A stretch of DNA of 64,000 bases from an uncultured Candidatus Saccharibacteria bacterium (GCA_964566505.1 CAZMIM010000001.1:199690-263689), one strand, 5' to 3'. Positions 2,163 through 50,795 are shown, counted from the stretch's first letter. Made by a program: numbers and translations. The notes: a model not told the origin generated them from the sequence alone.

Positions 2163-2164
2163 CT

Positions 2165-5275: not shown

Positions 5276-5321
5276 TATTGAGATAGTTCGCCCGTTCTTT
5301 CCTACCAAACAAACAGTCCTC

Positions 5322-5483: not shown

Positions 5484-5493
5484 CATGCACCTA

Positions 5494-5530
5494 AAAACCC
5501 CAAATGCAAATGATTTGCATTTGGGGTTTT
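5494..5530. terminator. bidirectional terminator built on the 21-bp palindrome AAATGCAAATGATTTGCATTT extended by CCCC/GGGG
   Basis: Perfect hairpin aaaaccccaaatgcaaatgatttgcatttggggtttt between convergent genes. Confidence 0.65.
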
Positions 5531-5550
5531 GTGCTTGAAATAGGCCTTTT

Positions 5551-6663: not shown

Positions 6664-6794
6664 CCCGATAGTGATAGAAAGTGCATATTAGGCACTTTCG
6701 ATAATTAAATTATTAATTCTTATTCTCAACATATATATCATTTATTTTACATCCCATTCTTCTTTCGTAAATCAATCACTATCGGGACCCATAA

Positions 6795-7571
6795 TTACAA
6801 TACTAACTTGTTAATAAACTCAAAGTTTGCCACCAACGACAGACTCTCTGTAAATGCCAAAATACCAATCACTACCAAAAGTACTCCAAATACCATATTG
6901 AGATACTTAAGCTTTTCTTGATATCGTGAAATCCATCCACCAGCCTGTGTGGCAAATGCCCCTACGAATAGAAACGGTAACGCAAGACCAAGTGAATATG
7001 AGATAAGAAGTCCAAATGCGGCGCCAGGTGAAGATAGCGCAAGGCCAAGTATTGCACCTAGTATTGCACCTACACAAGGCGTCCAGCCAGCAGCAAAAGC
7101 TGCTCCAAACACAAACGAGGTCATGTATCGTGAGTTGAATTTATGTTTTACAGCAATTTGTCGATTCACCTCAAGAAATGGAATCTTTATAAGACCAGCC
7201 AAATACAAACCAAAAATAATCACCAAAGTTCCTCCAAGTCGTGCAAGCCAAGTCTGCACACTTCCGGCAATATCTACCAAAAATGAGTTGAGTATTACGC
7301 CCAACAGCGCAAACACGACGCTGAATCCAATAACAAAAAATATTGCATTAATAAAAGTACTCTTTCGAGATGATTCCCCCTCAACTGACACTCCGCCAAG
7401 ATATGCAAGATAGCCAGGAATTACGGGCAAAATACATGGGGACAGGAATGAAACTATTCCTGCTGTAAATGCCACAAAAAATGATATGTCGCTCATAGGA
7501 TTATTATACCCCAAAGGAGTTAAAGCAAACAAAAAACCGCCTAAGCGGTCTTTTGAATCGAGTGAGTGCAA
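6795..7571 (-). CDS. ccdA: cytochrome c-type biogenesis / disulfide electron transporter CcdA (DsbD family)
   Basis: Polytopic membrane protein with LSPCILPVIPGYL and GWTPCVGAILG motifs, the two conserved Cys of CcdA. Confidence 0.8.
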   Translation of the reverse strand: MHSLDSKDRLGGFLFALTPLGYNNPMSDISFFVAFTAGIVSFLSPCILPVIPGYLAYLGGVSVEGESSRKSTFINAIFFVIGFSVVFALLGVILNSFLVDIAGSVQTWLARLGGTLVIIFGLYLAGLIKIPFLEVNRQIAVKHKFNSRYMTSFVFGAAFAAGWTPCVGAILGAILGLALSSPGAAFGLLISYSLGLALPFLFVGAFATQAGGWISRYQEKLKYLNMVFGVLLVVIGILAFTESLSLVANFEFINKLVL

Positions 7572-7808
7572 TTACTGTGCGTCTTCTGCGTCAGCGTCAG
7601 CCTCCATTGCGTCATCTGAAGCTGCTTCATCATCTGAAGCTGCTGCAGCTGCTGCACTGTCGTCTGTCATTGCGTCTCCTTCCATTACTTCCTCAGTTGT
7701 ATCTCCTTCCACTGCTGCATCCTCGTCACCATTCTTTGTAAGAAGAAGTGCTACTACGATGATTGCAACGATCAGAAGTACGATCAACCATGCATTACCT
7801 TTGTTCAT
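7572..7808 (-). CDS. small membrane-anchored protein with acidic Ala/Asp/Glu-rich tail
   Basis: 78 aa; one TM helix then a low-complexity acidic region. Confidence 0.35.
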   Translation of the reverse strand: MNKGNAWLIVLLIVAIIVVALLLTKNGDEDAAVEGDTTEEVMEGDAMTDDSAAAAAASDDEAASDDAMEADADAEDAQ

Positions 7809-7929
7809 AATAAAACTAAAAGTTAACTTTTAACTTTAACCTCTCACGCACAGAGCGTGGTAGTTATTGCCATTTTAGCGCTTAAAATCGTTACTTTCAA
7901 GGACTTATCCACTTTGCCCATCAAGAGCG

Positions 7930-10002
7930 CTATACGTCAATATTGGCCATCTTGGCGTTGTTTTGGATAAACGCCTTTCGAGAGCTTACTTCTGTACCCA
8001 TAAGAATATCAAAGATTCTATCAGCTTCTTCTGCGTCCTCAACAGTTACTTGCTTGAGCACGCGATTACCTGGATCCATTGTTGTTTCCCATAGCTCTTC
8101 TGCGTTCATCTCTCCAAGACCCTTATATCGTTGTAGGTGAATCTTTCTAGATTTTGCTTTTTTCTCTTCGTCTTGCTCCTCTTCGTCAGAATCTTCTTCG
8201 GGTTCATCCTCTGTATCTTCATCGCCTACTTCTATTCCCTGTGCCTTTAGATATTCTGCTTTTTCATCTTCTGTATATACATACACGAGCTCCTTTCCTT
8301 TCTTTATCTTATATAGAGGTGGTTGTGCAATGTATAGATACCCTCCATCAATAAGCGCTCGGAAATATCGGTAAAACAGAGTCAAAAGAAGTGTTCTAAT
8401 GTGAGCACCATCGACATCGGCGTCGGTTGCGATAATAATTTTGTGATATCGAAGTTTTTCTAGATCAAATGTGTCTCCAATAGCAGTACCAAGCGCAATA
8501 ACAAGGTTTTTAATCTGCTCAGATGAAAGCATCCTGTCGAGTCGTGCTCGCTCCACATTGAGAATCTTTCCTCGAAGTGGGAGTATAGCTTGTGTCTTTC
8601 GGTCTCGCCCTGTTTTTGCTGTACCTCCAGCAGAGTCTCCCTCTACAATAAATAGCTCTGAGTTCTCTGCCTTTTTGCTTGAACAGTCTGCAAGCTTTCC
8701 TGGTAGTGTCATTCCATCAAGTGCACCCTTTCGAAGCACGCTGTCTTTGGCAGCTTTAGCAGCCTTTCGTGCGCGCATAGCAAGAATGCTCTTGTTTATC
8801 ATTTGCTTTGCATCATCTGGATTCTCTTCAAGAAATACAGAAAGAGCTTCTCCAAATACAGACTCTACAGCACCTCGTGCCTCCATAGAACCAAGCTTTG
8901 CCTTTGTTTGCCCCTCAAACTGAATCTCAGGAAGCTTCACAGACACAACGGCAGTTAGGCCCTCTAGGGCATCATCTCCTGCAAGGTTGCCGTCTTTGTC
9001 TTTAAGGATTTTATTGTCACGCGCATAGTTGTTGAGCGTTCGTGTTAGAGCCGTTTTAAATCCAGTGATATGTGTTCCTCCTTCTGGGTTATGGATATTG
9101 TTGGCAAATGGCAATATTCGTGAAGAAATATCATCTGCATATTGAAATGAAACCTCTACCATAACATCATCAATCTCTTTCTCTACATAGAAAATATTTT
9201 TGTGCACTGGCTTGAGTGGAGTGTTATAGAACTGAATAAGAGAAACGAGACCTCCTTCAAAATAAAATGACATTGAGGGCACATCTAGTCCAAGCTCTTT
9301 GAAATAAAAGGCATCTTTGAAATCAATTTTCCCTTCGTACTCTCGTGCGTCATAAACACTAATGCGAAGTCCTTTTACCAAATAAGCCTGCTGTCGCATG
9401 TGAGCGGTAATCTTTTTCCAGTTAAACTCGATTTCTTTGAAAATCTCTGGGTCAGGCTGGAATGTAATAGCTGTTCCTGTCTTTTTTGAAGCACTTACTT
9501 TCTTTACAGCGCCCTTTTTCTTTCCTTGGTTGTACTCTTGTGTGTAGTACCCACCATCACGGTGAACCTCTGCTTTTGTGTATGTTGAAAGAGCGTTTAC
9601 CACAGAAACACCCACTCCGTGAAGACCTCCTGATACCTTATACCCCTCACCACCAAACTTACCTCCGGCGTGGAGTGTAGTCATAATAGTTTCAAGTGCA
9701 GATACTTTTGTTTGTTTGTGCTTGTCTACTGGAATACCTCGTCCGTTGTCAGCTACACGCACCATATTGTCTGGTAGCAAAACGATTTCTACATCGTCAG
9801 CAAAGCCACCCATGGCCTCATCCCGAGAGTTATCAAACACCTCTGTAATAAGGTGATGTAGACCATCTGGACCAGTAGTACCAATATACATACCTGGTCG
9901 TTTTCGTACCGGATCAAGCCCTTCTAGAACAGTAATATCCGAAGCGCTATATGAGCTTTTTTTCTTTGGTTTTTCTTCTTTTTTTGTTTTTTCTTTTGCC
10001 AT
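7930..10002 (-). CDS. gyrB: DNA gyrase subunit B
   Basis: GHKL ATPase motifs (HHLITEVFDNSRDEA, GLHGVGVSVVNALS), Toprim EGDSAGG, C-terminal ...NNAKMANIDV. Confidence 0.93.
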   Translation of the reverse strand: MAKEKTKKEEKPKKKSSYSASDITVLEGLDPVRKRPGMYIGTTGPDGLHHLITEVFDNSRDEAMGGFADDVEIVLLPDNMVRVADNGRGIPVDKHKQTKVSALETIMTTLHAGGKFGGEGYKVSGGLHGVGVSVVNALSTYTKAEVHRDGGYYTQEYNQGKKKGAVKKVSASKKTGTAITFQPDPEIFKEIEFNWKKITAHMRQQAYLVKGLRISVYDAREYEGKIDFKDAFYFKELGLDVPSMSFYFEGGLVSLIQFYNTPLKPVHKNIFYVEKEIDDVMVEVSFQYADDISSRILPFANNIHNPEGGTHITGFKTALTRTLNNYARDNKILKDKDGNLAGDDALEGLTAVVSVKLPEIQFEGQTKAKLGSMEARGAVESVFGEALSVFLEENPDDAKQMINKSILAMRARKAAKAAKDSVLRKGALDGMTLPGKLADCSSKKAENSELFIVEGDSAGGTAKTGRDRKTQAILPLRGKILNVERARLDRMLSSEQIKNLVIALGTAIGDTFDLEKLRYHKIIIATDADVDGAHIRTLLLTLFYRYFRALIDGGYLYIAQPPLYKIKKGKELVYVYTEDEKAEYLKAQGIEVGDEDTEDEPEEDSDEEEQDEEKKAKSRKIHLQRYKGLGEMNAEELWETTMDPGNRVLKQVTVEDAEEADRIFDILMGTEVSSRKAFIQNNAKMANIDV

Positions 10003-10297
10003 AAATGTTTACTTGGTGAGCGAAGCGAGCTTAGAAAACATTTACCCGCCTCAGTTTTTGCTTTTGCAAAAAATGTGTGCGGGTAAGTCGAAAACCTACC
10101 AATCCGCCATATTTTCGCCCTGCGAAACTAAGGCGGATGTGTAAATTATAGTCATTTTCATTCCTTAATTTACTACAAAATGCACCAAAAGGCGCACCTT
10201 TTTAGATACTGTATTATAGCAAAAATATCGCTTTACCTCAATCTATTTACAGAAAAGAGAAAGTGGAAAAGTGGCTTAAAATAGAGTCTATTTTCGT

Positions 10298-12154
10298 TTA
10301 TCGAACCTCAAAACCGTCTTGCGAGTTGAGAGTGTTTGTAACCTTATCCATAACCTCATTTACCTCACTGTCTGTAAGGGTTTTATCCATTGATTGAAAC
10401 ACCATTCGCAAACCATATGACACCCGTCCATCTTTTTTAAACTCATCAAATGGATACATATTTACCAGAAGATTGCTAGCATTTTCTCTAATAATATTTT
10501 CAAGCTCTTCTTGCGCCACTGACTCAGGCACCCACACTGCAATGTCTCGAAGTACAAAAGGATACTGTGAAATCTCTTTGTATTCTTTTCCATCAAAAGA
10601 AAGTTCTTCTAGGTCATCATAATTCTCTGGATCTGGAAGTTTTTCAAACAGCTCACTTAGATTCACTATCATGTTTTCTACCACCAGATCTATACCAAGA
10701 GCTTCTTTGAGTATTTCTGAGACATCTTCTGAAGCAATGAGTTCTACCCTCTCATCATCTTTTGAAAATACTGTTCCTATTTCAAATATTCTTACATTAT
10801 CTGTACCCAAAAGTGGTGCATTGTGTCTTGCGTGCTCAAGCGCTTTTTCAAAACCAATAGAAAGTGTTGGGCGAAGAAACCCTTTGTCTTGAGCCATCGG
10901 CTTTTGAAGCTCTATCTCTCCCTCATCCACAAATGAATATGTTGAAACTTCTGAAAAGCCTTCCCGTACCAAAATATCTTTGATTTTGTTTATCCAATAA
11001 AACTCTTTATGAATCTCCACCGGACCATGTCCTTCGTATGCTTTTTCTTCTTCTATATTTTGATATCCATATACGCGCGCAATCTCCTCTATCACATCCT
11101 CCTCAATATTTATATCCAGCCTATAAAGCGGTCCAGATACATCAAATACACCTGATTCTTTTTCTTCATATGAAAAATCAAGTCTTTCAAATATGTTTTT
11201 AATCTCATCTATAGAAATATTTGTACCAAGTAATTTGTTTACACGCTCATGTCGTACACGAACTACTACTTTTTCTTGAGTATTAGGATATTCATCCAAA
11301 ACATCAGACAAAACCTCGCCACCAGCGAAATCTCTGATTAGCTTTGAAGCACGATTTGAAGCTTCGATGGCAAGCATGGGTGAAATACCTTTCTCAAACC
11401 GAGAAGATGCATCTGTACGAAGACCAAGAGTTTTTGATGTTTTTCGAATATTTTCTGCATCAAAGTTACAAACAGACAAAACAATAGTATGCGTATTCTC
11501 ATCAATACCAGAAACACTTCCTCCTTTTATGCCAGCGATATCAAGAGCCTTCTCATCGTCTGCAATCACCACCATGTCTTTAATAAGAGAAAATGTATTT
11601 CCATCAAGCGTCTCTATTTCTTCTCCATCTTTTGCCGTACGAATTGAAATATTTTTTACACCATCACCTGCAATTTTTTCATAATCAAATGCATGAACAG
11701 GCTGACCAAACTCATACATTACAAAGTTTGTAATATCTACAATGTTGTTAATGGAACGCTGTCCCATAGTCTCAAGACGCTCTACAAGCCATTCTGGTGA
11801 AGGCCCTACTTTTACATTTCGTATCACACGCTTTGTGGCACGTGGTACAAGAGTGCTGTCTTCTACAGAAAGTGCGAGCATGTCTTTTGACTGAAAGTCA
11901 GTAGTCTCTACCTCCGTATCAACCATCTTAAATGGCAAATTAAAAATAAGTGCTACTTCTCCTGCCATTCCTAAATAAGAAAGTGCATCATGCGCTCTGT
12001 TAGGAAGCACATCAATATCAATAATCGCATCTCCGTCTTTCTCCTCAAATCCTTCTACTTCAAATGAGTGAAGTCCTATTTGTTCCGCTATATCTTCTGT
12101 TTTTGGCATCTCACCATCTATGTATTGTGAGAGCCAGTCCTTTGAGAACAACAT
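10298..12154 (-). CDS. pheT: phenylalanine--tRNA ligase beta subunit (short form)
   Basis: B3/4 and B5 domain signatures; immediately downstream of pheS. Confidence 0.88.
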   Translation of the reverse strand: MLFSKDWLSQYIDGEMPKTEDIAEQIGLHSFEVEGFEEKDGDAIIDIDVLPNRAHDALSYLGMAGEVALIFNLPFKMVDTEVETTDFQSKDMLALSVEDSTLVPRATKRVIRNVKVGPSPEWLVERLETMGQRSINNIVDITNFVMYEFGQPVHAFDYEKIAGDGVKNISIRTAKDGEEIETLDGNTFSLIKDMVVIADDEKALDIAGIKGGSVSGIDENTHTIVLSVCNFDAENIRKTSKTLGLRTDASSRFEKGISPMLAIEASNRASKLIRDFAGGEVLSDVLDEYPNTQEKVVVRVRHERVNKLLGTNISIDEIKNIFERLDFSYEEKESGVFDVSGPLYRLDINIEEDVIEEIARVYGYQNIEEEKAYEGHGPVEIHKEFYWINKIKDILVREGFSEVSTYSFVDEGEIELQKPMAQDKGFLRPTLSIGFEKALEHARHNAPLLGTDNVRIFEIGTVFSKDDERVELIASEDVSEILKEALGIDLVVENMIVNLSELFEKLPDPENYDDLEELSFDGKEYKEISQYPFVLRDIAVWVPESVAQEELENIIRENASNLLVNMYPFDEFKKDGRVSYGLRMVFQSMDKTLTDSEVNEVMDKVTNTLNSQDGFEVR

Positions 12155-38536: not shown

Positions 38537-38737
38537 TTACCAGTCTTCTTCTTCGTCATCGTCGAATGAAGGCATATCATCGTCTTCATCCTCTTCTTCG
38601 TCCTCATCAGAATCATCATCTTCCATTTCTTCGTCTTCCATTTCTTCATCCTCGAGGTCGAAGTCGTTTTCAAATTCTTCCATCATCATTTTGTTTGTGA
38701 TGTTAGTTCTTTTTGTTAATAGAACTGGCCCGTACAA
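38537..38737 (-). CDS. small, extremely acidic protein (Asp/Glu-rich tail ending in Trp)
   Basis: About 50-66 aa with about 60% D/E in the C-terminal 45 residues; the start is probably an internal Met. Confidence 0.4.
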   Translation of the reverse strand: MYGPVLLTKRTNITNKMMMEEFENDFDLEDEEMEDEEMEDDDSDEDEEEDEDDDMPSFDDDEEEDW

Positions 38738-39749: not shown

Positions 39750-40055
39750 TTAAGAAATAGTTTGTTTAGCCGATTCCTCGATCTCTTTTTCTAGGACTGA
39801 GATCTCCTGCTTTAAATCTCCATCCGACACTTCAATATCCCAACTCTTATTGGTGTTTGCATACCAAATACCTTTTCCGGAAAGTCTTGAGATGTGAATT
39901 CGCACCAAGCTCAATAGCTCTTTTGTTTCCTTTTCGAGTCTATCCATCAGACCGGGCATCTGAGCAAACGCACCTGTTATGTAGTGCCAGTTCTCAGCTT
40001 CAAGAACACGACCCCCGATCATAATATCTTCAAACCTGGTGAGAGTGTAATTCAT
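39750..40055 (-). CDS. hypothetical protein
   Basis: 101-aa ORF. Confidence 0.35.
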   Translation of the reverse strand: MNYTLTRFEDIMIGGRVLEAENWHYITGAFAQMPGLMDRLEKETKELLSLVRIHISRLSGKGIWYANTNKSWDIEVSDGDLKQEISVLEKEIEESAKQTIS

Positions 40056-40075
40056 GGATTGCGAATCTACATTGA

Positions 40076-40463
40076 TTAGGAGAAATATTGGTTAATAACA
40101 CTGAGGCTTCCCAGATCAATACTCAGTTCCTTTCTCACAGGAAGCTCTATAAGTCGGTTATGTGTTAGCTTGTGCGTTTCCAAGATCCTTTGGGTTTTCA
40201 AAGCATTTGTCCTGTTCAAACCTATAGTATCGATATGCTCATTTAACAACCTTTCTAAGATTACTAGCGCGTCACGATGCTTAATAAAACGCTCGTAGCG
40301 CTTTATGATGCGGTAACTCACGATACCAAAGAGAAAAGCAAAGAATGCTCCATAAACTTTTATGAATATTTGGCACCGCGAATAGAACCCAAATAAAAAA
40401 TACTGCGGTCCAGATAACAACTGCAAGTTCACGATTATTGAAAATACCAAGAATATCAAACAT
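40076..40463 (-). CDS. small 2-TM membrane protein downstream of and co-oriented with the STAND gene (two overlapping frames; possible frameshift)
   Basis: ORFs 40281-40463 and 40076-40459 overlap in different frames; both have TM segments. Confidence 0.3.
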
Positions 40464-40473
40464 GGTACTTCTA

Positions 40474-43400
40474 TTAACTTCGTCGACTTGTTACTTTCTT
40501 GGAGGATTTCTTTTTCGCTATTTTCTTTGTCGTCTTTTTGGCAACCTTCTTTTTAGGTGTAACAAACTTTGTACAGTCAATAGAAACAGGAGTGACTCCC
40601 TTTATCTTGCTAAATTCTTCTTTTATACGAGGAAGTGTCCGTATACTGCTATTAACAATAATGAGAAAGATGCCGTAATCTGCACCATACCCTCGCATGT
40701 ATTGACTCAAGCTCTTGTATGACTTTGAGGAGCTGACGCTTGTTGAACGAATGTCGCTATTTGATGTAAGTTTAACTTCCAAAATAACAGGACCTACAAA
40801 TCCGTATCGAATTATCAAATCGACTCGTTTGTCATCTAGCAAATCAGGCTCTCGCAAAAGATCAACGTGAAAACCTCGTTTAAGCATCACGTTTTCAATC
40901 TGTGATTTTAATGTCTTCTGAATCAATTTCTCGTACTCCTGTTTCTTCGTTTCGTAAATCTTACCTGTGAGAATAAGTTCATATGCTCCCTCTCCCTCAA
41001 TCCATCGACGTAAATCGGTATCAATCGCGTCATGTAAATGACGAGCCAGGTCTGCAGAAGTAATGATCCGCTTATCATCGTACTCCCGTGCTGAATTATA
41101 TTTTCGAACAGCTTCGGCAAACTGTGACGGTTTACCAATGGTATTGAGGTATGAACGGCGTAAGCTAACCATGCGAGCTGCAAGCCAATTCGCCCCCTCT
41201 TTTTTATTACCAACTAAAGCAATCTTTTCTTCAAGTAAACGCAAAGGCTTGTAGTCCCCATACTCTTTTAAGTTTTCGAAGTACGCATAAACTATTTCCC
41301 ATAAATATTGAGCATAAGGATGGTAACCGTCGCCGAGTGCCCAAACCTCGAGAGCCTTATCTATAAGATCTAAAAATTTTTCTTCGAATCCATAACTTTT
41401 TAATTCCATGAGTGGTTTTGCAAACTCTTTCCCAAAATGAAGTTCATCCTCAAAAGGCGTTACATCTTGAACAACACCAGATCTTGGTCTTATAGCACTT
41501 GCTGCAACTCTTGCCTGCACCTGTTCTAAGCGCCAATGTACTGCTTCTGGCTTAGCATACTTAGTAATGAGCAAACCATTAGCCTTTGTAGCAATAGCTT
41601 TCTCGTCATTAGACCCTTCTATGTATTCCGAAAAGATTTCCTTGAGGAAACCCTCATCCGGCTGAAGTAGTTCAGCCACAGACAAAGATTGCTCTCGATC
41701 ATACCTTCGGAATTGTGTCTCTCGCACAAAATCACGAAGGATCTGTCCAGCTGCAGTTAAATTATATTGCTCTGCTGCTTCGATAAGTGAGTCTGGTTGC
41801 CACCTCCACAAATCGCTATCTCGGTCGTTATAAATCCTTATCACAGAGTTTAGTTCTTCCGCAGAAAAATCGGGTACTAATTCAAACACGGTCTTTAAAT
41901 TTTCACTGTGCGCGAATGGTATAAAGCGAGCTATATTTGATCGATACGGTGTTATATCTATACCTCGATGTTTTGCTGCAGCAAGAGCATCTCCAAAAAC
42001 TATTGCTGCTCCGCTTGTAGTGTAGTTTCTGCTCGAACCTCCATCAGTCTCCGAATTTATTGTTAATCCGCGCTCTGCAGGATCGTGCCTAAGTACCTCC
42101 TGACGAATAAGCGTATCGAATCGCTCCCGATCAGCATCGCTCATTAATTTTTCGAGTTTCTCGACATTTGAATTGTAATCATGGAAAACTCGTGTCATGT
42201 ATTGTTGTGGAGCTGGTTCAAGTGCATTACGAAACTCCGAAAGAATTCTTTCATCGTACACATGCTCATGATCTGACGGTGGTTGTCTGCGTGCCTCCTC
42301 ATATTCTCTATAAGAATCAGGTAATTTTTCACGCCCTGCCTCATAAATAGCATCTGAGTCTTCGTCTCCTCGCAACTTAATACGAATTAAAGTATTCATT
42401 AAATGCATTTTGTGTAAGCCAGCTTCTAGCATCATATCTATATATTGACCAACATCAGACGGTGTGAGTATCTCTGCAAATAAATCTTGTGCAAAATATA
42501 AACCATTCTCTCCATCATCACTGTTCTGGATTTGACGAATGAGATTAGGAATAAAATCAGGATTCTCTTCACGCAAAAAATGCATTAATCCAATTACAAA
42601 CTGCGATTCTCCGCGTGTGTGTGCAACGGAGTAGTGTAAAGATTTTACAATTACCTCTAAGACAATTTCTCGCATCTCTTCGTCTGCAACAGCGCGAATA
42701 TGATCAACTAGCACATGGTCTTTGTCTTTGAAAATCGAGGAATCGTCCAGAAATTCCCTACGAAGTTGTTCATCTTCGTTATATTTTCGCAAGAAACGCT
42801 TCAGAGCACCGAGTCCCGTAACCTCGAAGAGTCCATATCTTCCGTGCAAATCATTGCTCCTTATGAGTTTTATGAATGCATCGACACTTTCATCTTTGTT
42901 AGGGTCAAGTTCACTACACAAAGAAACAAACTCCCTCATGACGAGTTCATCAGGAGCATTGGTCAAATCTGGTAATTCATCGATAACTGTCGGATCTCCA
43001 AGTTTTGCTAATGCCAATAATGCATGGCGCGGCAAGACTCCATTGTCAGATTGTCCAGATGCATAACTTATGAGCCGCCCACGCCAATAAGTGATATCAA
43101 TCTCCAATCCAGCACGTAATAAATAAGAAATTACATAAGATATGTTTCCTAAAGGAACATAGTACTTTGTTTCATTCGAGGTGAATGCCTCAGCCTCTTC
43201 AGTTTGTGCCTTTAAAAAAGATTCTAGGCTTGATGAATAGAACCCAGGAAGAGACGAGGTGAGCTGCCCAGGAATCCATTGTAATTTTGTATTGTGATAA
43301 GAAACAGAATCGATAAACAAACGCTCTTTGGTGGTGTCGGGAATAAATTTTGGATTAACTCTACTTAGGAAGTTGAAGAAGGCCTCGTCGACAACCTTAA

Positions 43401-44568
43401 ATGCCTGTCCATGAATTCCAGAGAAATCCAAAAGCTGACCGAGTATATCTCGATCCATATCAACAAAAAAACTAAGAGTGTTATACCAAGATGGATAAAA
43501 TTCATTTATCGTTTCGTCAGCAGCAAAACTAAAAGTTGCCCGTCTTGGTTCTGGGAATCGTGTCAATTCTTTTGCTGCAAGATATTCTTGAAATTCAGCA
43601 TTCTCAAATTCAATACTGTTCGTGTCCTCTTTTGAAATTTGCAATAATGAATTTTTCAAAAGGATATCGATACCTACTTGGGCAAGTACCATTAACTTGA
43701 TATCGGACCTTACATCGTCAAAAAAAGTTACTAACTCATCGCGAGTAATTGAATTCGCTTGATAAATCTCCATTGTCAAAGCCAACTTCTCCAACAGTCG
43801 CTTTAACACTTGCTCCATTTCACGAATATCTTGATTATTCTGAGCTTCAATTCTTAATTTTGAATAGATAAAATGTTCAAAAAGTTCATTTCTTGATATC
43901 TCCTGTACATCAGTAACTGACTTATCAGTCATAAACTGCTCAAAGAGAAAAAGATAGCGTGGAATTTGGATAATAATCCTTCCATGAAATTGCATTGCTC
44001 GCTGCATTAACACATCAATGTCAGCAGAGCTACGGCTTCCACTAGAGAGATATTCCCTGAGCTGATTCGAGGTAAATGGTTTTATGGAAATAAAACGATA
44101 TTTAGAAAAGACATTTGCATATCTTTCCATAAATACCCAACGACTTGATATATAAATAATTAGATTTGGGTACTGACGGGATATATTCTGGACCTCCTGA
44201 AGAATGTCAGAAAAATGTGATGAGGGAACCTCATCTAAAGCATCAAGTAATAATGCTTTTGGTTTCTTTGTTCCTTTCTTCACAAAGTTACTTATTTCCT
44301 CGAAAGAATTTGGAGATCGAAGAGGAATAAACTTAGTTGTAAATCCTTTGCTCTGAAATTCCACATCAATTCTCTTCATTAACTCTGTTTTGCCAATACC
44401 AGGCTCTCCAACCACTATCGTATTTTTATCTTGGGTAAGATCAGAGATAGTAGTTGGACTAGCATCGTCAAAAACAAAACCATGACCATATTTCCCATAC
44501 TCTTCTTTTGCCTCCTTAAAAGTAGAGGATACTTCTGTTACTGGGAATATATATCGAGAATCATCCAT
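40474..44568 (-). CDS. NACHT/STAND-family P-loop NTPase (1364 aa) with long alpha-helical middle region, C-terminal PD-(D/E)xK-like nuclease motif and Lys-rich tail
   Basis: Walker A GEPGIGKT and NACHT-type Walker B ALLLDALDE near the N-terminus; about 900 aa helical repeats; C-terminal RVDLIIRYGFVGPVILEVKL (D...E.K) then KKKVAKKTTKKIAKKKSSKK tail. Confidence 0.8.
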   Translation of the reverse strand: MDDSRYIFPVTEVSSTFKEAKEEYGKYGHGFVFDDASPTTISDLTQDKNTIVVGEPGIGKTELMKRIDVEFQSKGFTTKFIPLRSPNSFEEISNFVKKGTKKPKALLLDALDEVPSSHFSDILQEVQNISRQYPNLIIYISSRWVFMERYANVFSKYRFISIKPFTSNQLREYLSSGSRSSADIDVLMQRAMQFHGRIIIQIPRYLFLFEQFMTDKSVTDVQEISRNELFEHFIYSKLRIEAQNNQDIREMEQVLKRLLEKLALTMEIYQANSITRDELVTFFDDVRSDIKLMVLAQVGIDILLKNSLLQISKEDTNSIEFENAEFQEYLAAKELTRFPEPRRATFSFAADETINEFYPSWYNTLSFFVDMDRDILGQLLDFSGIHGQAFKVVDEAFFNFLSRVNPKFIPDTTKERLFIDSVSYHNTKLQWIPGQLTSSLPGFYSSSLESFLKAQTEEAEAFTSNETKYYVPLGNISYVISYLLRAGLEIDITYWRGRLISYASGQSDNGVLPRHALLALAKLGDPTVIDELPDLTNAPDELVMREFVSLCSELDPNKDESVDAFIKLIRSNDLHGRYGLFEVTGLGALKRFLRKYNEDEQLRREFLDDSSIFKDKDHVLVDHIRAVADEEMREIVLEVIVKSLHYSVAHTRGESQFVIGLMHFLREENPDFIPNLIRQIQNSDDGENGLYFAQDLFAEILTPSDVGQYIDMMLEAGLHKMHLMNTLIRIKLRGDEDSDAIYEAGREKLPDSYREYEEARRQPPSDHEHVYDERILSEFRNALEPAPQQYMTRVFHDYNSNVEKLEKLMSDADRERFDTLIRQEVLRHDPAERGLTINSETDGGSSRNYTTSGAAIVFGDALAAAKHRGIDITPYRSNIARFIPFAHSENLKTVFELVPDFSAEELNSVIRIYNDRDSDLWRWQPDSLIEAAEQYNLTAAGQILRDFVRETQFRRYDREQSLSVAELLQPDEGFLKEIFSEYIEGSNDEKAIATKANGLLITKYAKPEAVHWRLEQVQARVAASAIRPRSGVVQDVTPFEDELHFGKEFAKPLMELKSYGFEEKFLDLIDKALEVWALGDGYHPYAQYLWEIVYAYFENLKEYGDYKPLRLLEEKIALVGNKKEGANWLAARMVSLRRSYLNTIGKPSQFAEAVRKYNSAREYDDKRIITSADLARHLHDAIDTDLRRWIEGEGAYELILTGKIYETKKQEYEKLIQKTLKSQIENVMLKRGFHVDLLREPDLLDDKRVDLIIRYGFVGPVILEVKLTSNSDIRSTSVSSSKSYKSLSQYMRGYGADYGIFLIIVNSSIRTLPRIKEEFSKIKGVTPVSIDCTKFVTPKKKVAKKTTKKIAKKKSSKKVTSRRS

Positions 44569-44587
44569 AACAACAAATTATTACAAC

Positions 44588-44899
44588 CTACTTATGCCTA
44601 GCAGCACGAAGAAGTTTACGTGCCAAGGCCTCAAGCTCAGCGTCAGATCCTGCAGTTTTCTTCCTTACAGATTTTGAAGGTCGACCGAGAAAGTATTCGT
44701 AATCCTTCATAAACAAATCTGCGAGTATCACTAGATCTCTAATTTTCAAACTTCGCTCTCCTCTTTCAATAAGAGAAATAGCGGTTGGAGAATCAAATTC
44801 CAGTATTTGAGCAAGGTTTGTTTGTGAATATCCAGCTTCAAGTCGACATTCACGTATCTTCTCACCTAATTGTTTATCGAATTCATGGTCAGTCGCCAT
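44588..44899 (-). CDS. XRE-family helix-turn-helix transcriptional regulator
   Basis: HTH_XRE motif LGEKIRECRLEAGYSQTNLAQIL; 19 bp upstream of and co-oriented with the STAND gene. Confidence 0.75.
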   Translation of the reverse strand: MATDHEFDKQLGEKIRECRLEAGYSQTNLAQILEFDSPTAISLIERGERSLKIRDLVILADLFMKDYEYFLGRPSKSVRKKTAGSDAELEALARKLLRAARHK

Positions 44900-45020
44900 A
44901 ACTACTGCATTATATTATCCACAATTTGATTTGAAAAGATTAATCAAAATGATAAACTTGTTTATATAAGGAGTAGTGGTAGCAATCAAGCAATTAGAAG
45001 AATCATTATGAAAACAGCAT

Positions 45021-46289
45021 ATGAAAAAACTTGCTTGGTCTACAACCCAACAAAAGGTTAACGATCTGCTCCCCCAGGAGGTTAATCCCCGCACTATTTC
45101 CGACAAGCAAATGTCGGATCTTAAAAGAAGCCTCAAGAAATACAATCTTGTGGAGATTCCCGCTATTGATGTAGATGGGACGATATTAGCTGGTCATCAG
45201 CGTATTAAGGCACTGCAACTCCTTGGGCGCGGTGAGGATATGATTGATGTCCGTGTACCCAACCGAAAACTCACCAAGGAAGAATCTAAAACATATCTCA
45301 TAGCGTCCAACAAGCTTGGCGGTGACTGGGATTTTGATCTTCTGAAGTCTTTTGATTTCGATACCTTGGAGTTCGCAGGGTTTGATCCCATCGAAGTCGG
45401 GGAACTCTTCGACAGAGATAACGAAGTTGCCGAAGAAGACTTTGATGTTGAGAAAGAACTAAAAAAGATTAAGAAGCCAAAAACAAAGCTTGGCGACATC
45501 GTTGTTCTTGGTAATCACCGTATTCTATGTGGCGACTCCACTAAGAAAGAGAACCTGAAGAGACTCTTCGGGAACAAAAAGGCATCGATGATATACAGCG
45601 ACCCTGTATACAACATTGATATCGACTATGACGGTGGTATTGGCGGAAAGAAAGAATACGGCGGAGATGTAAACGATACACGTTCGTTCGATGAGTACCG
45701 CACATTCCTCAACGACAGCATGGAAGCAGCACTTGCCGTTTCCAAAGAAGACCTACATATCTTCTATTGGTGCGATCAGATATACATCGGCGTTGTACAA
45801 AACCTGTACCGGTGGCTTGGTATTGCTAATAAGCGTGTGTGTTTGTGGCTCAAGAATAATCAGAACCCTGTTCCCTCGGTTGCGTTCAATAAAGCGTATG
45901 AACCTGCGGTATACGGCGTACGAGGCAAACCATACCTCGCCAACATACATAACCTCAACGAGGTAATGAATAAGGAACTCGGTACTGGCAATTCCCTGCT
46001 CGACGACATCTGGACAGCAAAACGTCTGACCGCCAAAGAGTACGAGCACGCCACATCAAAACCGCCACAGCTTCACGAGAAAGCGATTAAACGCTGCACC
46101 AAACCAAACGACATTATTCTCGACAGTTTCCTTGGTTCTGGCAGCACCCTTATTGCCGCAGAATCACTTGGTCGAAGAGTATATGGGTGTGAACTTGAAC
46201 CTGCGTTCTGCGATCTCATCGTTCGGAGATGGGAAAAGCTAACAGGCAAGAAAGTGTCCTATGAAAAAGACAAAGGTACTGGTAAATAA
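45021..46289 (+). CDS. ParB-like nuclease domain fused to a DNA methyltransferase (N6-A/N4-C class)
   Basis: N-terminal ParB/Srx fold (EIPAIDVDGTILAGHQRIKA); MTase motif IV-like SDPVYN and motif I LDSFLGSGSTLIAAE. Confidence 0.75.
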   Translation: MKKLAWSTTQQKVNDLLPQEVNPRTISDKQMSDLKRSLKKYNLVEIPAIDVDGTILAGHQRIKALQLLGRGEDMIDVRVPNRKLTKEESKTYLIASNKLGGDWDFDLLKSFDFDTLEFAGFDPIEVGELFDRDNEVAEEDFDVEKELKKIKKPKTKLGDIVVLGNHRILCGDSTKKENLKRLFGNKKASMIYSDPVYNIDIDYDGGIGGKKEYGGDVNDTRSFDEYRTFLNDSMEAALAVSKEDLHIFYWCDQIYIGVVQNLYRWLGIANKRVCLWLKNNQNPVPSVAFNKAYEPAVYGVRGKPYLANIHNLNEVMNKELGTGNSLLDDIWTAKRLTAKEYEHATSKPPQLHEKAIKRCTKPNDIILDSFLGSGSTLIAAESLGRRVYGCELEPAFCDLIVRRWEKLTGKKVSYEKDKGTGK

Positions 46290-46830
46290 ACTGCTTGCGG
46301 AAATTGAGAAAGCTCCTGTTATACAAGTGGCGTGCGATAAGGTAGGTATCTCAAGAAACACCTTCTACCGTTGGATCAAAGAGGACTCTGAGCTTATGGA
46401 GCGCATGAGTGAAGCCATGTCTCTTGGCACTGGGTTGGCAAATGATGTTGCGATAAGTAACGTTTTAGAGGGTGTAAAAAGAAAAGATCCGATGTACACA
46501 AAGTACTGGCTGAGCCACAAACATCCTGACTTCAGGAGACCCTTCGTCCATAAGGTTGACTCTGATGATCTACTCACTCATTTCCGGTCTGTTATGGAAG
46601 GTATACGGAAACGTGAAATTGCTCAAGAAATTGCAGATGAAGCAACCAGAATTGAAGGCGTAAGATTAGAGAAGGCACGAGAAGAAGTACAGGGATTCAT
46701 GGACAAGTGGAAAAATGTAATAAGCGAATCTCAACACAAAGAAGCCAGGAAACTATTCGAAGAATGGAAAGAAGACTTCCTCAGTGAAAAAGCTAGCCAA
46801 GCACAGCGCCTTAAAAAGCCAAAGAAATAA
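46261..46830 (+). CDS. HTH-domain protein resembling phage terminase small subunit / DNA-packaging HTH proteins
   Basis: N-terminal HTH VACDKVGISRNTFYRWIKED; overlaps the MTase gene end by 29 bp. Confidence 0.45.
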   Translation: MKKTKVLVNKLLAEIEKAPVIQVACDKVGISRNTFYRWIKEDSELMERMSEAMSLGTGLANDVAISNVLEGVKRKDPMYTKYWLSHKHPDFRRPFVHKVDSDDLLTHFRSVMEGIRKREIAQEIADEATRIEGVRLEKAREEVQGFMDKWKNVISESQHKEARKLFEEWKEDFLSEKASQAQRLKKPKK

Positions 46831-47173
46831 ATCCCCAAATAGTTATTACAACGAACACAGCAATAATGATCCAATACTTCTTGTTCCTTCTTGTGGTTTC
46901 TTGTTTTTCTTCCGCAATAACTTCTTCAATATCTTTTTCAGAATCCATTTCTTGAAGAATCTTCTTTGCTCTTGGCGAGTCTAAAGGAATCATGTCTGTA
47001 CTCTGACATTTTGCACATGCCGGGTGATACGAACTAGATCGCCATACTGAATAAATAAGACCAGGAACAAGAAAGCAGAGCCATAGTACGATTTCAACAC
47101 CAAGACTTCCTTTTGCTAATCTTTTCGGTTTACCAACGTGACCGCACTGGGTACAAATTAATGTTTTTGCCAT
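46811..47173 (-). CDS. zinc-ribbon plus TM small protein
   Basis: CTQCGH...CAKCQS Cys4 ribbon followed by two TM helices. Confidence 0.4.
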   Translation of the reverse strand: MAKTLICTQCGHVGKPKRLAKGSLGVEIVLWLCFLVPGLIYSVWRSSSYHPACAKCQSTDMIPLDSPRAKKILQEMDSEKDIEEVIAEEKQETTRRNKKYWIIIAVFVVITIWGFISLAF

Positions 47174-47503
47174 AGATTTTTTAATGACGAATAAATCTTA
47201 TGGCGGGTAACAAAAAGCCCGCCACCAAGTAGAGCCGAAGCTCATATCCCAAGTTTCCCTGGAATAGCTCAAGGAGAGACCCTTGATGACGGGTTCTTTA
47301 TTCTCCTTGAGACTTTTATATTCGGACCATACCGCCACAAACGTGTCGGGTTAGGTCGCTATATTGTGATGTCGAGCTCTTCGCTCAACATATACATAAT
47401 ATCGCTAAATAAAGGTGGTGTTAAGCAAGAAGCGAGTATGCGACGAATCACTGGTTCTGCATAGCTTAGCAAGACTAGTTTTCTCTGGCATTAATGGTTC
47501 CCT

Positions 47504-48883
47504 ATGGAACTAGCGAATATTACTCAATCAGCGTCTCAGCAAGCTGTCCAAATTGAGAAAGTAAAATATGTACTTTATGCTCGTAAATCGACCGAGCAAG
47601 ATGAGAAACAAGCACTCTCAATTGAGTCTCAAGTTAAAGAAATGCTTGCAATAGCTGAGCGAGAGAATCTAGAGATTGTTGATATTAGACGTGAGTCCCA
47701 CTCAGCAAAAAACTCGGGACAACGACCAGTCTTTAAAGAAATTCTTGAGGATATACGAAGAGAACGGTTCAACGGAATTCTCGTTTGGCATCCAGATAGA
47801 CTCAGCAGAAACGCTGGAGACTTAGGATCAGTTGTTGACCTTATGGACGAGAAATTACTTGTCCAAATAAGAACATACAGCCAAATATTCACCAACAACC
47901 CAAATGAGAAATTCCTCCTTATGATTCTTTGTTCTCAAGCGAAACTTGAGAACGACAACAAAAGCATCAACGTAAAGCGTGGTTTGAGGACAAGAGTTGA
48001 AATGGGACTTTGGCCAGCCCCTGCTCCAACTGGATATTTGAAAGAAAAACGAATGGATCGTAAATGCGAAACCATCATTGATCCAGAACGAGCGCCGGTT
48101 ATTAAACAAATGTTTGAGAAAGTCGCCTATGAAAAGTGGTCGGGGCGCAAACTCTATAACTGGCTCAAATTTGATCTCAATTTCAAAACTGTTGGAGGAA
48201 ACAAGAATCTCACGCTAGGAAATATCTATGTCATCCTCCAAAATCACTTTTACTACGGCACATTTGAATATCCAAAGAAGAGCGGTAATTGGTATCAAGG
48301 AAAACACAAACCAATCATCACTAAAGAGCTTTTTGATCAGGCACAGATGCAGCTTAAAGGAAACGAGCTAAAGACTCGAAAAGAAAAAGAGTTTGCGTTC
48401 ACAAGGCTAATGATCTGCGGACTCTGTGGATCTGGAATTACCGCTGATGAAAAATACAAAAAATTGAAAGACGGCACTGTAAACACTCACATATACTATG
48501 GCTGCACTAAAGTACGAGATAGAAACTGTAAGTGTGGCTACATTAACGAAGCTGATTTGATAGCTCAGTTTGAGAAGCTAATTGATGAGATTAATTTGGA
48601 TGAAATTGGTATTAAAGAAAAGATTAAACAGGAAGTGGTTCGTTTCAAGAAATTTCAGCAAATGCTAGTAGGTAATATCCAGAAAATTGAAGTGGTAGAT
48701 ATAGATATACGAAATTATACGATATATCTTCTTAGAGAAGGTTCGATAGCAGAAAAACGAGAGCTGTTGGGTAATTTAAAAAGCAAAATTTTCCTTGCGA
48801 ATAAAGAAATTAGGCTTTCTCAAGATCTAACCTCTTTAGAGTCATTGCATTCACAACGACAATCACCGTTGAGAGGCTCATGA
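47504..48883 (+). CDS. large serine recombinase (resolvase/invertase catalytic domain, recombinase domain and zinc-ribbon)
   Basis: Catalytic YARKSTEQDE...SIESQ; C-terminal CGLCGS...YYGCTK...CKCG zinc ribbon; coiled-coil tail. Confidence 0.85.
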   Translation: MELANITQSASQQAVQIEKVKYVLYARKSTEQDEKQALSIESQVKEMLAIAERENLEIVDIRRESHSAKNSGQRPVFKEILEDIRRERFNGILVWHPDRLSRNAGDLGSVVDLMDEKLLVQIRTYSQIFTNNPNEKFLLMILCSQAKLENDNKSINVKRGLRTRVEMGLWPAPAPTGYLKEKRMDRKCETIIDPERAPVIKQMFEKVAYEKWSGRKLYNWLKFDLNFKTVGGNKNLTLGNIYVILQNHFYYGTFEYPKKSGNWYQGKHKPIITKELFDQAQMQLKGNELKTRKEKEFAFTRLMICGLCGSGITADEKYKKLKDGTVNTHIYYGCTKVRDRNCKCGYINEADLIAQFEKLIDEINLDEIGIKEKIKQEVVRFKKFQQMLVGNIQKIEVVDIDIRNYTIYLLREGSIAEKRELLGNLKSKIFLANKEIRLSQDLTSLESLHSQRQSPLRGS

Positions 48884-50795
48884 CAAGCGCACCTATTTCA
48901 GGGCGCAAAAAGAAACCCCACACAGCAAATACTCCGGCTGCTGCGGGAATGGCAACGATATTGTACCCAAGTGCCCAGACGAGGTTCTGAATCATCTTTG
49001 CGTATACCTTCTTTGAGAGCGTTATGAGGCGCACGATATCTTGAGGGTCATTGTCGGTAAGCACCACATCGCCAGATTCAACCGCGACATCGGTGCCTGC
49101 GCCAATGGCGACTCCTGCGTCGGCTTGTGTGAGTGCAGGAGCATCGTTCACTCCATCACCGACCATAAGCACTACACTGCCATCCTCCTGAAGCTTCTTG
49201 ATGTGAGTGTATTTATCTTCCGGCAAGACATTTGCAAAATAGGTATCAATGCCAAGTTCTTCTGATACCGACTGTGCGACCTGTTCGTTGTCGCCGGTAA
49301 GCATAGCGACTTTCACACCCATGCCGTGTAGCTTTTGGACCGCCTCCTTTGAAGATTCTTTTATCGCATCGGAGAGAACCAGATATCCGAGCACCGCTTC
49401 CTTACTTGCTACAAAGACGAGCGTGCCATTTAGATTAGTGGGAGCGTCAAGATGTAAGTTTAAACTTCGAACCAGACGTTCGTTTCCTGCAAAGTATTCC
49501 GTGCCCTCAATTTCTGCTTTCACACCCTGTCCTGCAACATTTTGAAAATTATCAATATCGGAAATAGATACCTTTTGCTCTCGTGCATATTTGAGTATTG
49601 ACTGTCCGATGATATGTGAAGAATGCTGTTCGAGAGACGCTGCGATGGAGAGAATGTTGTTTGTATCTTGCTCTGCCAGAGGAATAACATCGGTCACGCC
49701 GAATTCTCCCTTAGTGAGCGTTCCTGTCTTATCAAACACTACATAGTCAGCTTTTCGTATTGTCTCTATCTTCGAAAGGTCTTTGATGAAAAATCCGTTC
49801 TTCACGGCAAGTGACGTGGTGATGGTTGTCACTGTAGGAATCGCAAGACCAAGCGCATGCGGACATGCAATAACGAGCACCGTAATAGCGAGCGTCACAG
49901 CGAACACAAACGGCTGACCGATCACTAGTGTCCACACGAGAAGCGTACCGAGTGCCGTGATGCCAGCAACAAAGGTGAGTACGGCAGATGCTTTATCCGC
50001 AATTCTCTGTGAACGTGGCTTTGTTTGACCGGCTTGTGCTATGAGCTTTTGTATTTGCCCGACTGTTGAATGCTCTCCAACACGGGAGAGCTTGATGGTA
50101 AGCGATCCATCAAGACAAATTGATCCCGCGACCACTTGAGCATCCACTTCTTTCTTCACCGGCTTTGACTCACCGCTTATAAGCGACTCATCTACATTTG
50201 CGAATCCTTTGGTAATAACACCATCCGCTGGAATCTTTTCACCCGGCTTCACTATGACAATATCGCCCTCCTGAAGCTCGGCGATATCGACATCAACTTC
50301 CGTGCCATTCTCAAGCTTATGCGCTTTCTTCGGCAAGAGCTTTGCGACTTCGGAGAGCGCATCTCCTGCAGCAGAGCTTGATTTGGCCTCGAGGTAATGT
50401 CCGAAAAGAAGTACCCACACGAGGGTGGAGATTTCAAGATAAAACTCAGCATGAAGTGAGGTAATAAACGTTGAGGCAACGGAAAAAAGATACCCGCTAC
50501 CCACCGCAAGCGACACGAGTGTCATCATGCCGTATTTGCGAGATTTTATTTCATGCCACGCGTGCTGGAAGAATACGAGCGCAAACCCAAAGATAATTGT
50601 TGCAATCCCAAACTGTATCCACTTGTTAAGTCCGAAGGAGATGCCAAGTATCTCTGATACTTTCGGATGTACGAGTACGAGTGGAATGAGGAGAAATGTG
50701 ACAATCCAGAATCGTCTTAAGTACTGCGCGGCAGATCCGTGACTCATTCCATGTGCTCCATGACTTGCGTGATTGTGATGGTGCTCATGTGCCAT
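48810..50795 (-). CDS. copA: copper-translocating P1B-type ATPase (no N-terminal HMA domain; His-rich N-terminus)
   Basis: CPH motif (IACPHALGLAIP), DKTGTLT, GDGVNDAPAL; N-terminal MAHEHHHNHASHGAHGMSH. GC is noticeably higher than the surrounding genes. Confidence 0.88.
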   Translation of the reverse strand: MAHEHHHNHASHGAHGMSHGSAAQYLRRFWIVTFLLIPLVLVHPKVSEILGISFGLNKWIQFGIATIIFGFALVFFQHAWHEIKSRKYGMMTLVSLAVGSGYLFSVASTFITSLHAEFYLEISTLVWVLLFGHYLEAKSSSAAGDALSEVAKLLPKKAHKLENGTEVDVDIAELQEGDIVIVKPGEKIPADGVITKGFANVDESLISGESKPVKKEVDAQVVAGSICLDGSLTIKLSRVGEHSTVGQIQKLIAQAGQTKPRSQRIADKASAVLTFVAGITALGTLLVWTLVIGQPFVFAVTLAITVLVIACPHALGLAIPTVTTITTSLAVKNGFFIKDLSKIETIRKADYVVFDKTGTLTKGEFGVTDVIPLAEQDTNNILSIAASLEQHSSHIIGQSILKYAREQKVSISDIDNFQNVAGQGVKAEIEGTEYFAGNERLVRSLNLHLDAPTNLNGTLVFVASKEAVLGYLVLSDAIKESSKEAVQKLHGMGVKVAMLTGDNEQVAQSVSEELGIDTYFANVLPEDKYTHIKKLQEDGSVVLMVGDGVNDAPALTQADAGVAIGAGTDVAVESGDVVLTDNDPQDIVRLITLSKKVYAKMIQNLVWALGYNIVAIPAAAGVFAVWGFFLRPEIGALVMSLSTVIVVVNAMTLKRLDLEKA

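Follow-up and report, generated by a model that had tools for sequence, protein, structure and literature searches.

What a single gene of 1364 codons does in the genome of an uncultured Candidatus Saccharibacteria bacterium is the question raised by positions 40,076 to 44,899 of the 64,000-nucleotide (nt) stretch analyzed here (GCA_964566505.1 CAZMIM010000001.1:199690-263689; hereafter, the window). The sequence-only reading of this DNA had combined the giant gene, a helix-turn-helix (HTH) gene upstream of it and a small membrane-protein open reading frame (ORF) downstream into a three-gene immune module. Our analysis points instead, with moderate confidence, to the giant gene itself, which probably specifies a self-contained NLR-like immune protein, i.e., a single-gene sensor-nuclease carried on an integrating element. 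It most likely adds a further family to a class of bacterial immune proteins that is already known.

Architecture of the giant protein

The giant ORF (40474-44568 on the minus strand, 1364 amino acids from an ATG start) is predicted to encode, from the N to the C terminus, a NACHT module, an α-helical solenoid and a restriction endonuclease (REase)-like domain. The landmarks named in the sequence-only reading were all found at their exact positions in the protein: the Walker A motif GEPGIGKT (residues 54-61), the Walker B motif ALLLDALDE (105-113), the C-terminal segment RVDLIIRYGFVGPVILEVKL (1248-1267) and the basic tail KKKVAKKTTKKIAKKK (1339-1354). Conservation was assessed on an alignment of 70 giant homologs. 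G54, E55, P56, G57, G59 and K60 of Walker A are each at least 90% conserved, with K60 nearly invariant, whereas D109, D112 and E113 of Walker B (D109-A-L-D112-E113) are invariant and position 110 is Ala or Gly in the sequences read. The Walker B motif thus conforms to D[GAS]hDE, the signature that separates NACHT from other STAND proteins (Kibby et al., bioRxiv 10.1101/2022.07.19.500537).

Residues ~41 to 345 (43534-44448, minus strand) make up the NACHT module, which consists of a nucleotide-binding domain (NBD), helical domain 1 (HD1) and a winged-helix domain (WHD). Modeling of residues 1-680 from the family alignment gave a structure with a predicted local distance difference test (pLDDT) score of 86.8. 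When it was compared with the PDB by Foldseek, NLRC4, NLRP14, NOD2, NLRP3 and NAIP5/NLRC4 came out on top (E values of 8e-9 to 1e-6); nearly all of the best 40 matches were NLR NACHT proteins (8e-9 to 4e-6), and EfAvs5 (7e-6) and SAMD9 ranked lower. The winged-helix extension after the nucleoside triphosphatase (NTPase) core and the NACHT-like overall fold are thus present at the level of predicted structure only. The WHD motif of the giant reads EFENAEFQEYLAAKE and includes the invariant N323. In NLRs, this motif is FxHxxFQE(F/Y)LAA, and its His contacts ADP. The profile search proposed together with the sequence-only reading did retrieve NACHT (PF05729) and nSTAND3 (PF20720), but with scores below the Pfam thresholds (18.1 versus 26.7 bits and 25.1 versus 27.2 bits, respectively), and precomputed NACHT matches of the homologs are "faint" wherever a strength is reported. 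Despite these scores, the signature motifs and the matches to NLR folds bear out the earlier assignment. By its predicted structure and conserved motifs, the N-terminal module is a NACHT-type STAND NTPase.

Some 900 amino acids of helical repeats had been anticipated, and the two predicted models (mean pLDDT of ~87) agree with this. Residues ~346 to 1165 (~820 amino acids; 41074-43533, minus strand) are all-α in both models and form a HEAT/ARM-like solenoid, with HEAT-like profile matches at residues 503-600 and structural matches to AP-2, importin, Integrator and symplekin. This solenoid is presumed to be the sensor arm.

The remainder of the protein is predicted to be a PD-(D/E)xK REase-like domain (residues ~1166 to 1335; 40564-41073, minus strand). 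In the model of residues 681-1364 (pLDDT of 86.9), a helix (1209-1230) is followed by strands β1 (1236-1238), β2 (1251-1255) and β3 (1258-1267), a helix (1282-1293), β4 (1298-1305), another helix and β5 (1325-1331), which reproduces the canonical α-β-β-β-α-β core; the domain model also resembles solved PD-(D/E)xK members. E1213 sits on the first helix, D1250 just before β2, and E1264 and K1266 on β3, and these four are the putative catalytic residues. Together with E1240 and Y1290, they are invariant in the alignment, and the residues of this domain remain so in Bacteroidota and Nitrospirota relatives that are ~25 to 40% identical (23 sequences). Both the predicted core and the invariant residues support a C-terminal domain of the restriction endonuclease fold with an intact E/D/ExK set. 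The structure prediction suggested as a check therefore agrees with the earlier proposal.

Sequence models were also searched. Among 23 members of the family, no significant match to a curated PD-(D/E)xK sequence model was found; seven Pfam matches stayed below threshold (SfsA and PDDEXK_3, two each; Mrr_cat, PDDEXK_4 and PDDEXK_9, one each), with best E values of 0.015 to 0.1. When the PDB was searched with sequence profiles of the entire family and of the C-terminal domain, the matches were limited to P-loop and alphaRep/HEAT proteins, and no nuclease was retrieved. A profile of the C-terminal domain retrieved 382 matches from 1.84 billion representatives. Judged by the best 150 of these, all of which have the same architecture or are fragments of it, the REase-like domain appears to be private to the giant family.

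The protein ends in a polybasic tail (40477-40563, minus strand) that is predicted to be disordered, pLDDT being low at the C-terminal end of the model. It contains 15 Lys or Arg residues among the 34 counted from D1331, and its composition is conserved across the 70 homologs (medians of 28.5 residues, 12 K/R and 1 D/E). In the homolog P0024 (L002/L003, 8001-12356), an extra C-terminal domain of ~110 amino acids (residues ~1340 to 1451) replaces this tail; it begins with RIIAFDFDGTIAKY, a HAD-phosphatase-like motif.

Distribution of the family and partner genes

A search of 5.8 billion protein cluster representatives identified 286 homologs of the giant protein at an E value of ≤1e-3. Figures for size, coverage and identity refer to the best 120 of these 286, nearly all of which have ~1300 to 1450 amino acids, cover 94 to 100% of the query and are 41 to 70% identical to it. 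The organisms named among them are mostly Patescibacteria, along with Dormibacterota and others. A one-genome-per-species scan uncovered further relatives (25 to 46% identity) in Saccharibacteria, Nitrospirota, one gammaproteobacterium and several Bacteroidota, including the cultured species Chitinophaga arvensicola DSM 3695, and two Arcobacter plasmids carry a homolog (24% identity) annotated as hypothetical. The family therefore spans several phyla plus plasmids, and the earlier suggestion of a lineage-specific system is not supported. No homolog was found in phage records, and the giant protein has no match in PHROG. Mean column identity in the 70-sequence alignment is 52%, protein length is almost fixed, and conservation is fairly even along the protein (NACHT module, 0.61 to 0.73; helical region, 0.53 to 0.65; C-terminal domain, 0.67). 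Given such a conserved family, the features of the giant protein are not attributable to chance. Records annotate the homologs as "hypothetical protein" or under stray names ("DNA repair protein RadA," "guanylate kinase"). Matches to DUF8371 (PF28130), a newer Pfam family, occur at family loci and are mostly "faint" or "weak" where strength is reported; a literature search for DUF8371 found no description.

Neighboring genes were compared across 27 non-redundant loci, and no gene is conserved directly upstream or downstream of the giant, which suggests that the giant functions as a single, autonomous gene. Defense genes recur around it nonetheless. One locus (L001) has a C5 methylase and MutH-like nuclease pair nearby and an OLD-family ATPase (AAA_15 plus OLD-like TOPRIM) by a UvrD helicase, which is the gene combination of Gabija. 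Other neighbors are TIR, Mrr and Cas1 genes with an IS110 transposase (L004), a type I restriction-modification (R-M) system with a large helicase (L037), an AAA_13/PDC-S06 ATPase (L011), a KAP NTPase of the QatA/PifA type (L025), and a type IIG R-M enzyme upstream with AbiLi downstream (L027). In a Nitrospirota metagenome-assembled genome (L007, 241-6491), the giant stands between the half-size HsdS gene and the HsdM gene of a type I R-M system, an arrangement that looks like insertion into the R-M operon. L026 has a WYL regulator and a TraG/TraD coupling protein, and a dGTPase gene lies near the homolog on an Arcobacter plasmid. A defense role, as originally proposed, is the best reading of the neighborhoods in L001, L004, L037, L007, L011, L025 and L027. 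Sporadic distribution, carriage on mobile elements and plasmids, and defense gene neighbors together suggest a horizontally moving, defense-associated gene.

The HTH gene of the window (44588-44899, minus strand) encodes a 103-amino-acid protein of the XRE family and ends 19 nt before the giant ATG, in the same orientation; here the ORF map and Pfam (HTH_31, 2e-8, and HTH_3, 2e-7, both above cut-off) confirm the sequence-only reading. Weaker PADLOC matches are to HTH_VI, CapH and R-M control proteins. L042 has an ortholog with 66% identity, separated by 15 nt from a downstream giant gene whose product is 56% identical, and a near-identical copy is present in L040, a near-identical strain. No orthologous co-oriented HTH gene was found upstream of the giant at the other family loci examined. 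Unrelated HTH genes are divergent from the giant in L025 and L026 (Cro/C1 type) and in L037 (HTH_17), the homolog P0112 carries a fused N-terminal HTH_17 domain, and in the majority of family loci an HTH gene is missing. Transcriptional control thus recurs without being a fixed component, and the HTH protein, orthologs of which were seen only in the window lineage (L040) and L042, is not supported as a general partner. Its probable role, limited to this sub-lineage, is to repress the operon. A sigma-70-like promoter match (TTTTCA-17-TATAAT; 44909-44937, minus strand) lies 10 nt 5' of the HTH gene, within the 121-bp gap between the divergent HTH and methylase genes. It agrees with the consensus at 10 of 12 positions, but is a pattern match only, in a region that holds fewer such sites than its shuffles.

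Downstream of the giant, a possibly frameshifted ORF with two transmembrane (TM) segments had been placed at 40076-40463. Two small minus-strand ORFs do exist there (40281-40463, 60 amino acids from an ATG; 40076-40459, 127 amino acids), but the gene extends to 39750, and its homologs have a single TM segment. A 101-amino-acid ORF at 39750-40055 clusters with a 229-amino-acid protein that corresponds to the 127- and 101-amino-acid ORFs joined. Strain L039, in which this gene occupies 361-1050, shares 99% DNA identity with the window over an aligned 2 kb. One gap of 19 bp interrupts the alignment; the 19 bases, ACGAACGTTTTGTGCAAAG, are present in L039 and missing from the window at about 40076-40078. 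The intact family comprises 30 homologs of 236 to 245 amino acids that have one TM helix each and match no Pfam family. Their N termini are unrelated to the first ~36 codons of the 127-amino-acid ORF, and homology to them starts at GAFFAFLFG, around codon 37 and near position 40351. The first hydrophobic segment of the window ORF is therefore foreign and derived from the island. Our conclusion from these comparisons is that integration of a mobile element disrupted the 5' end of a resident single-TM gene, with the junction at ~40351-40356; to judge from the 19-bp deletion, the gene has decayed further in the window strain after insertion. Its truncated remnant (39750-40459, minus strand) lies outside the system. 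A +1 frameshift joining the 60-amino-acid ATG ORF to the 127-amino-acid ORF was considered and rejected, the intact homologs having a different, non-membrane N terminus. A homolog of the single-TM gene stands beside the giant gene in none of the 26 other loci, and the sizes of the listed contigs carrying single-TM homologs do not coincide with those of contigs carrying giant homologs.

The integrating element

Upstream and divergent from the HTH-NACHT operon, the window carries a ParB-domain N6/N4 DNA methyltransferase gene (45021-46289, plus strand), which matches Pfam N6_N4_Mtase (1e-31), PADLOC MTase_II (1e-65), a PHROG DNA methyltransferase (4e-90) and ParB-like families. Next to it is the gene of a small-terminase-like HTH protein of 189 amino acids (46261-46830, plus strand; PHROG terminase small subunit, 2e-9; Pfam Sf6_terminase and HTH_Tnp_1 below threshold), which has homologs in L034 and L036. 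The far end of the element is formed by a large serine recombinase of 459 amino acids (47504-48883, plus strand) with the Pfam domains Resolvase, Recombinase and Zn_ribbon_recom; L001, L011 and L034 have recombinase homologs next to their giant genes, and the serine recombinase of L042 has the same Pfam domains as that of the window. Between the terminase-like gene and the recombinase is a LOOT RNA (Rfam RF03000; 47231-47357, minus strand) whose score of 51.8 bits exceeds the gathering threshold of 46.4 (E value of 7e-7). LOOT, a small RNA family, reaches 77 bits in the related elements L041 (255-384) and L042 (3430-3560). In the window, L041 and L042 alike, it lies on the strand of the NACHT gene, and it adjoins the recombinase in the window and L042 and the large terminase in L041. 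A literature search for LOOT found no description.

The ParB-methylase is next to the giant in five loci, namely, the window, L034, L036, L041 and L042, the giants of the last four being 47 to 68% identical to that of the window, and a small-terminase-like gene accompanies the methylase in all five. L034, L036 and L041 also carry a gene for the large terminase subunit (TerL; phrog_38, E values of 1e-76 to 1e-81), which the window copy lacks, and a serine recombinase was seen in the elements of the window, L034 and L042. None of the five contains capsid or tail genes. Element size is ~8.5 kb in the window (~40351-48883) and up to ~10 kb elsewhere (L034, ~900-10500). With no capsid or tail genes, these compact elements look like phage satellites or stereotyped prophage remnants of Patescibacteria, with the NACHT gene as cargo. 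That the giant gene is cargo of an ~8.5-kb element mobilized by the serine recombinase is supported by this organization. Of the island context named earlier, the ParB-methylase and the recombinase belong to the element, and the nearest tRNA gene, tRNA-Gln at 52184, is 3.3 kb past the recombinase and away from the junction. Repeats of the att type were sought at the element ends, and nothing convincing was found, in keeping with a serine recombinase.

The 3' end of the recombinase gene overlaps by 74 bp (48810-48883) a convergent gene for a P-type (copper-type) ATPase (48810-50795, 661 amino acids). The L042 recombinase is also flanked by metal genes, for a CsoR-like repressor and an HMA-domain protein; metal genes by the recombinase could reflect a shared insertion neighborhood or extra cargo. 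Directly downstream of the LOOT RNA and on the same strand, positions 46811-47173 (minus strand) hold a 120-amino-acid ORF with a zinc-ribbon-like N terminus (CxxC...CxxC) and two hydrophobic segments. The equivalent position is occupied by a 113-amino-acid ORF in L042 and by a 206-amino-acid ORF with an OB fold (tRNA_anti-like) in L041.

Function of the giant gene

The giant shares with bNACHT proteins the D[GAS]hDE Walker B, a helical-repeat sensor and the tripartite organization of effector, NACHT and sensor in one polypeptide, with its predicted effector at the C terminus. This order had been regarded as inverted; it is not unprecedented, since C-terminal effectors have already been described for bacterial NACHT proteins, as the less frequent arrangement (Kibby et al., bioRxiv 10.1101/2022.07.19.500537). 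Unlike bNACHT, the giant has a sub-threshold Pfam NACHT score, and no tested bNACHT is shown to be its sequence relative; features of its family are the private REase-like domain, the polybasic tail and a near-fixed size of ~1350 amino acids. Likeness to Avs proteins lies in the combination of a STAND NTPase, a large α-helical sensor and a PD-(D/E)xK nuclease in one polypeptide, in the proposed logic of ligand-induced oligomerization that activates DNA cleavage, and in the presence of EfAvs5 among the fold matches. The Avs (AVAST) group of STAND proteins, in which Avs3/Avs4 are examples of members that carry nucleases as effectors, was reportedly described by Gao et al. in 2022. Avs effectors are N-terminal, however (survey, PMC13581612), whereas the NTPase of the giant starts at residue ~41, which leaves no room for an N-terminal effector, and its nuclease is C-terminal. 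The PADLOC Avs models (families 1 to 5) do not match the giant, whose NTPase looks more NACHT-type than Avs-type in its fold matches.

EruA (NCBIfam NF058535, a model of 1318 positions) is the best curated sequence match to the giant and is of similar size; it is titled "NACHT domain-containing antiphage protein." The match aligns NBD residues 40-245 with model positions 17-213 (E value of 4e-10; 38.6 bits versus a cut-off of 1000), and nothing aligns past the NBD. A literature search for EruA found no description. PADLOC returned P-loop-level matches only (PDC-S73, 19 bits; mad8, 18 bits), which, together with the low EruA score, upholds the earlier statement that no named system fits. The NBD-HD1-WHD-HD2 region finds its best fold matches in animal NLRs (NLRC4, NOD2, NLRP3, NAIP5), and an FQE(Y/F)LAA-type WHD motif is common to them and the giant. 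They differ in having a leucine-rich-repeat sensor and an N-terminal CARD/PYD adaptor, where the giant has a HEAT/ARM solenoid and a C-terminal enzyme. The type II enzymes BamHI and BstYI are 11% identical to the C-terminal domain, with no significant sequence-profile match; unlike them, the REase-like domain of the giant is fused to a regulatory body of 1165 amino acids and has no conserved cognate methylase.

By analogy with Avs and bNACHT, the giant protein would be a closed monomer in the uninfected cell. Binding of a phage protein, or of a host protein altered by the phage, to the solenoid might free the NACHT module for ATP uptake and oligomerization, which would gather the C-terminal nuclease domains. 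BamHI-type enzymes work as dimers. The polybasic tails could hold the nuclease domains on DNA, which would be cut without discrimination of sequence or of self and non-self, arresting phage replication and probably sacrificing the cell. Where present, the HTH protein would keep this toxic gene at a low level.

Several observations weigh against such an immune role. For the assignment of the REase domain, the basis is structure prediction together with conserved residues, and all curated sequence models fall below threshold for the giant protein. Asn323 invariantly occupies the position of the ADP-contacting His of the animal NLR WHD, so nucleotide control may differ from that of NLRs. Neighbors in L002 and L033 are housekeeping genes only. 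The main oddity is that conservation of the presumed sensor comes close to that of the catalytic domains, and that protein length is almost fixed. This differs from the fast-evolving sensors expected in arms races and counts against the immune reading; the conservation may point to a conserved host ligand (guard function), a conserved trigger or a non-immune role. A non-immune STAND protein for signaling or regulation, whose REase-like domain and tail only bind DNA in the manner of STAND transcription regulators, or one with another housekeeping role, would accommodate the high, even conservation, the fixed length and the two housekeeping contexts. Moreover, Lee et al. 2026 distinguish 589 prokaryotic STAND clades, of which 198 are defense-associated, and non-defense clades stand among the defense clades. 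Such a protein is nevertheless rather improbable, given that the full set of putative catalytic residues is invariant across phyla, that the family is distributed patchily (286 of 5.8 billion representatives match the whole protein and 382 of 1.84 billion its C-terminal domain) and that the gene travels on mobile elements and plasmids and has defense-island neighbors. A housekeeping role in particular was rejected on account of this patchy, multi-phylum and mobile-element-borne distribution.

The remaining alternatives turn on the neighbors of the giant in the window. If the ParB-methyltransferase protected DNA, the giant could be an NTP-dependent restriction enzyme and the XRE protein its controller (C) protein. 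The divergent ParB-N6/N4 methylase adjoining the giant in five loci, methylases beside the family members L001, L007, L027 and L037, and the weak HTH matches to R-M control proteins speak for an R-M-like pair. It is made improbable by the small terminase gene beside the methylase in all five loci (with the large terminase in L034, L036 and L041), by the matches of the methylase to phage methylase/ParB families, as expected of an orphan methylase of a phage or satellite, and by the lack of a methylase near the giant in L002, L004, L033, L043 and the Arcobacter plasmid locus. No cognate methyltransferase is consistently linked to the giant gene across the family, and STAND NTPases are switches, not translocases. 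We also consider unlikely a function confined to the element, such as attack on the DNA of helper phages or competitors while the satellite is packaged, or a role as an addiction module, with no general defense. The giant does lie at the edge of the same compact element in the five loci, which share the recombinase, TerL, the small terminase (TerS) and the ParB-methylase in varying combinations and carry the LOOT RNA in three cases; however, most loci and phyla have the giant without the element, no phage record contains it, and PHROG does not match it. By far the poorest prospects are those of the three-gene module, in which HTH regulator, STAND nuclease and a 2-TM membrane effector would act together. 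The three ORFs of the window do share an orientation and lie close together, and the HTH-giant pair recurs in L040 and L042, but the downstream ORF belongs to the resident 236- to 245-amino-acid family, with a foreign N terminus and a 19-bp deletion, its homologs are missing beside the giant in all 26 other loci, and the HTH gene is absent from most loci. A conserved HTH, STAND and small-TM neighbor set does not exist across the 27 loci, and the module is largely refuted, its third member being an unrelated, insertion-truncated gene and its first restricted to a lineage.

An autonomous immune protein therefore remains our preferred interpretation. If its defense role is confirmed, more than 300 sequence clusters would join the bacterial NLR-like repertoire, although the family in itself would be an incremental addition to the 589 STAND clades of Lee et al. 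2026. Its distinguishing traits are the invariant putative catalytic residues, confidently predicted structures, a C-terminal effector, the private REase-like domain, the polybasic tail proposed to bind DNA and an unusually conserved sensor, which suggests a conserved trigger. A 4.1-kb gene also represents a large investment in the ultra-small genomes of Patescibacteria. There is a small chance that the NACHT-REase is more specifically the weapon of a previously undescribed, compact satellite-like element of the candidate phyla radiation (CPR)/Patescibacteria, assembled from serine integrase, LOOT RNA, TerL and TerS, ParB-methylase and NACHT nuclease, with the solenoid recognizing one conserved protein of the helper phage or host. 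This would offer a tractable pattern recognition receptor in a phylum about whose phages almost nothing is known, as well as a biological setting for the orphan LOOT RNA.

In composition, the AT-rich locus matches its host, as noted earlier: its G+C content of 39 to 40% does not differ from that of the surroundings. Further along, at 38537-38737 (minus strand), the window contains a 66-amino-acid ORF whose C-terminal two-thirds are extremely acidic, with runs of D/E, and the opposite strand of this ORF has a serine-rich reading frame.

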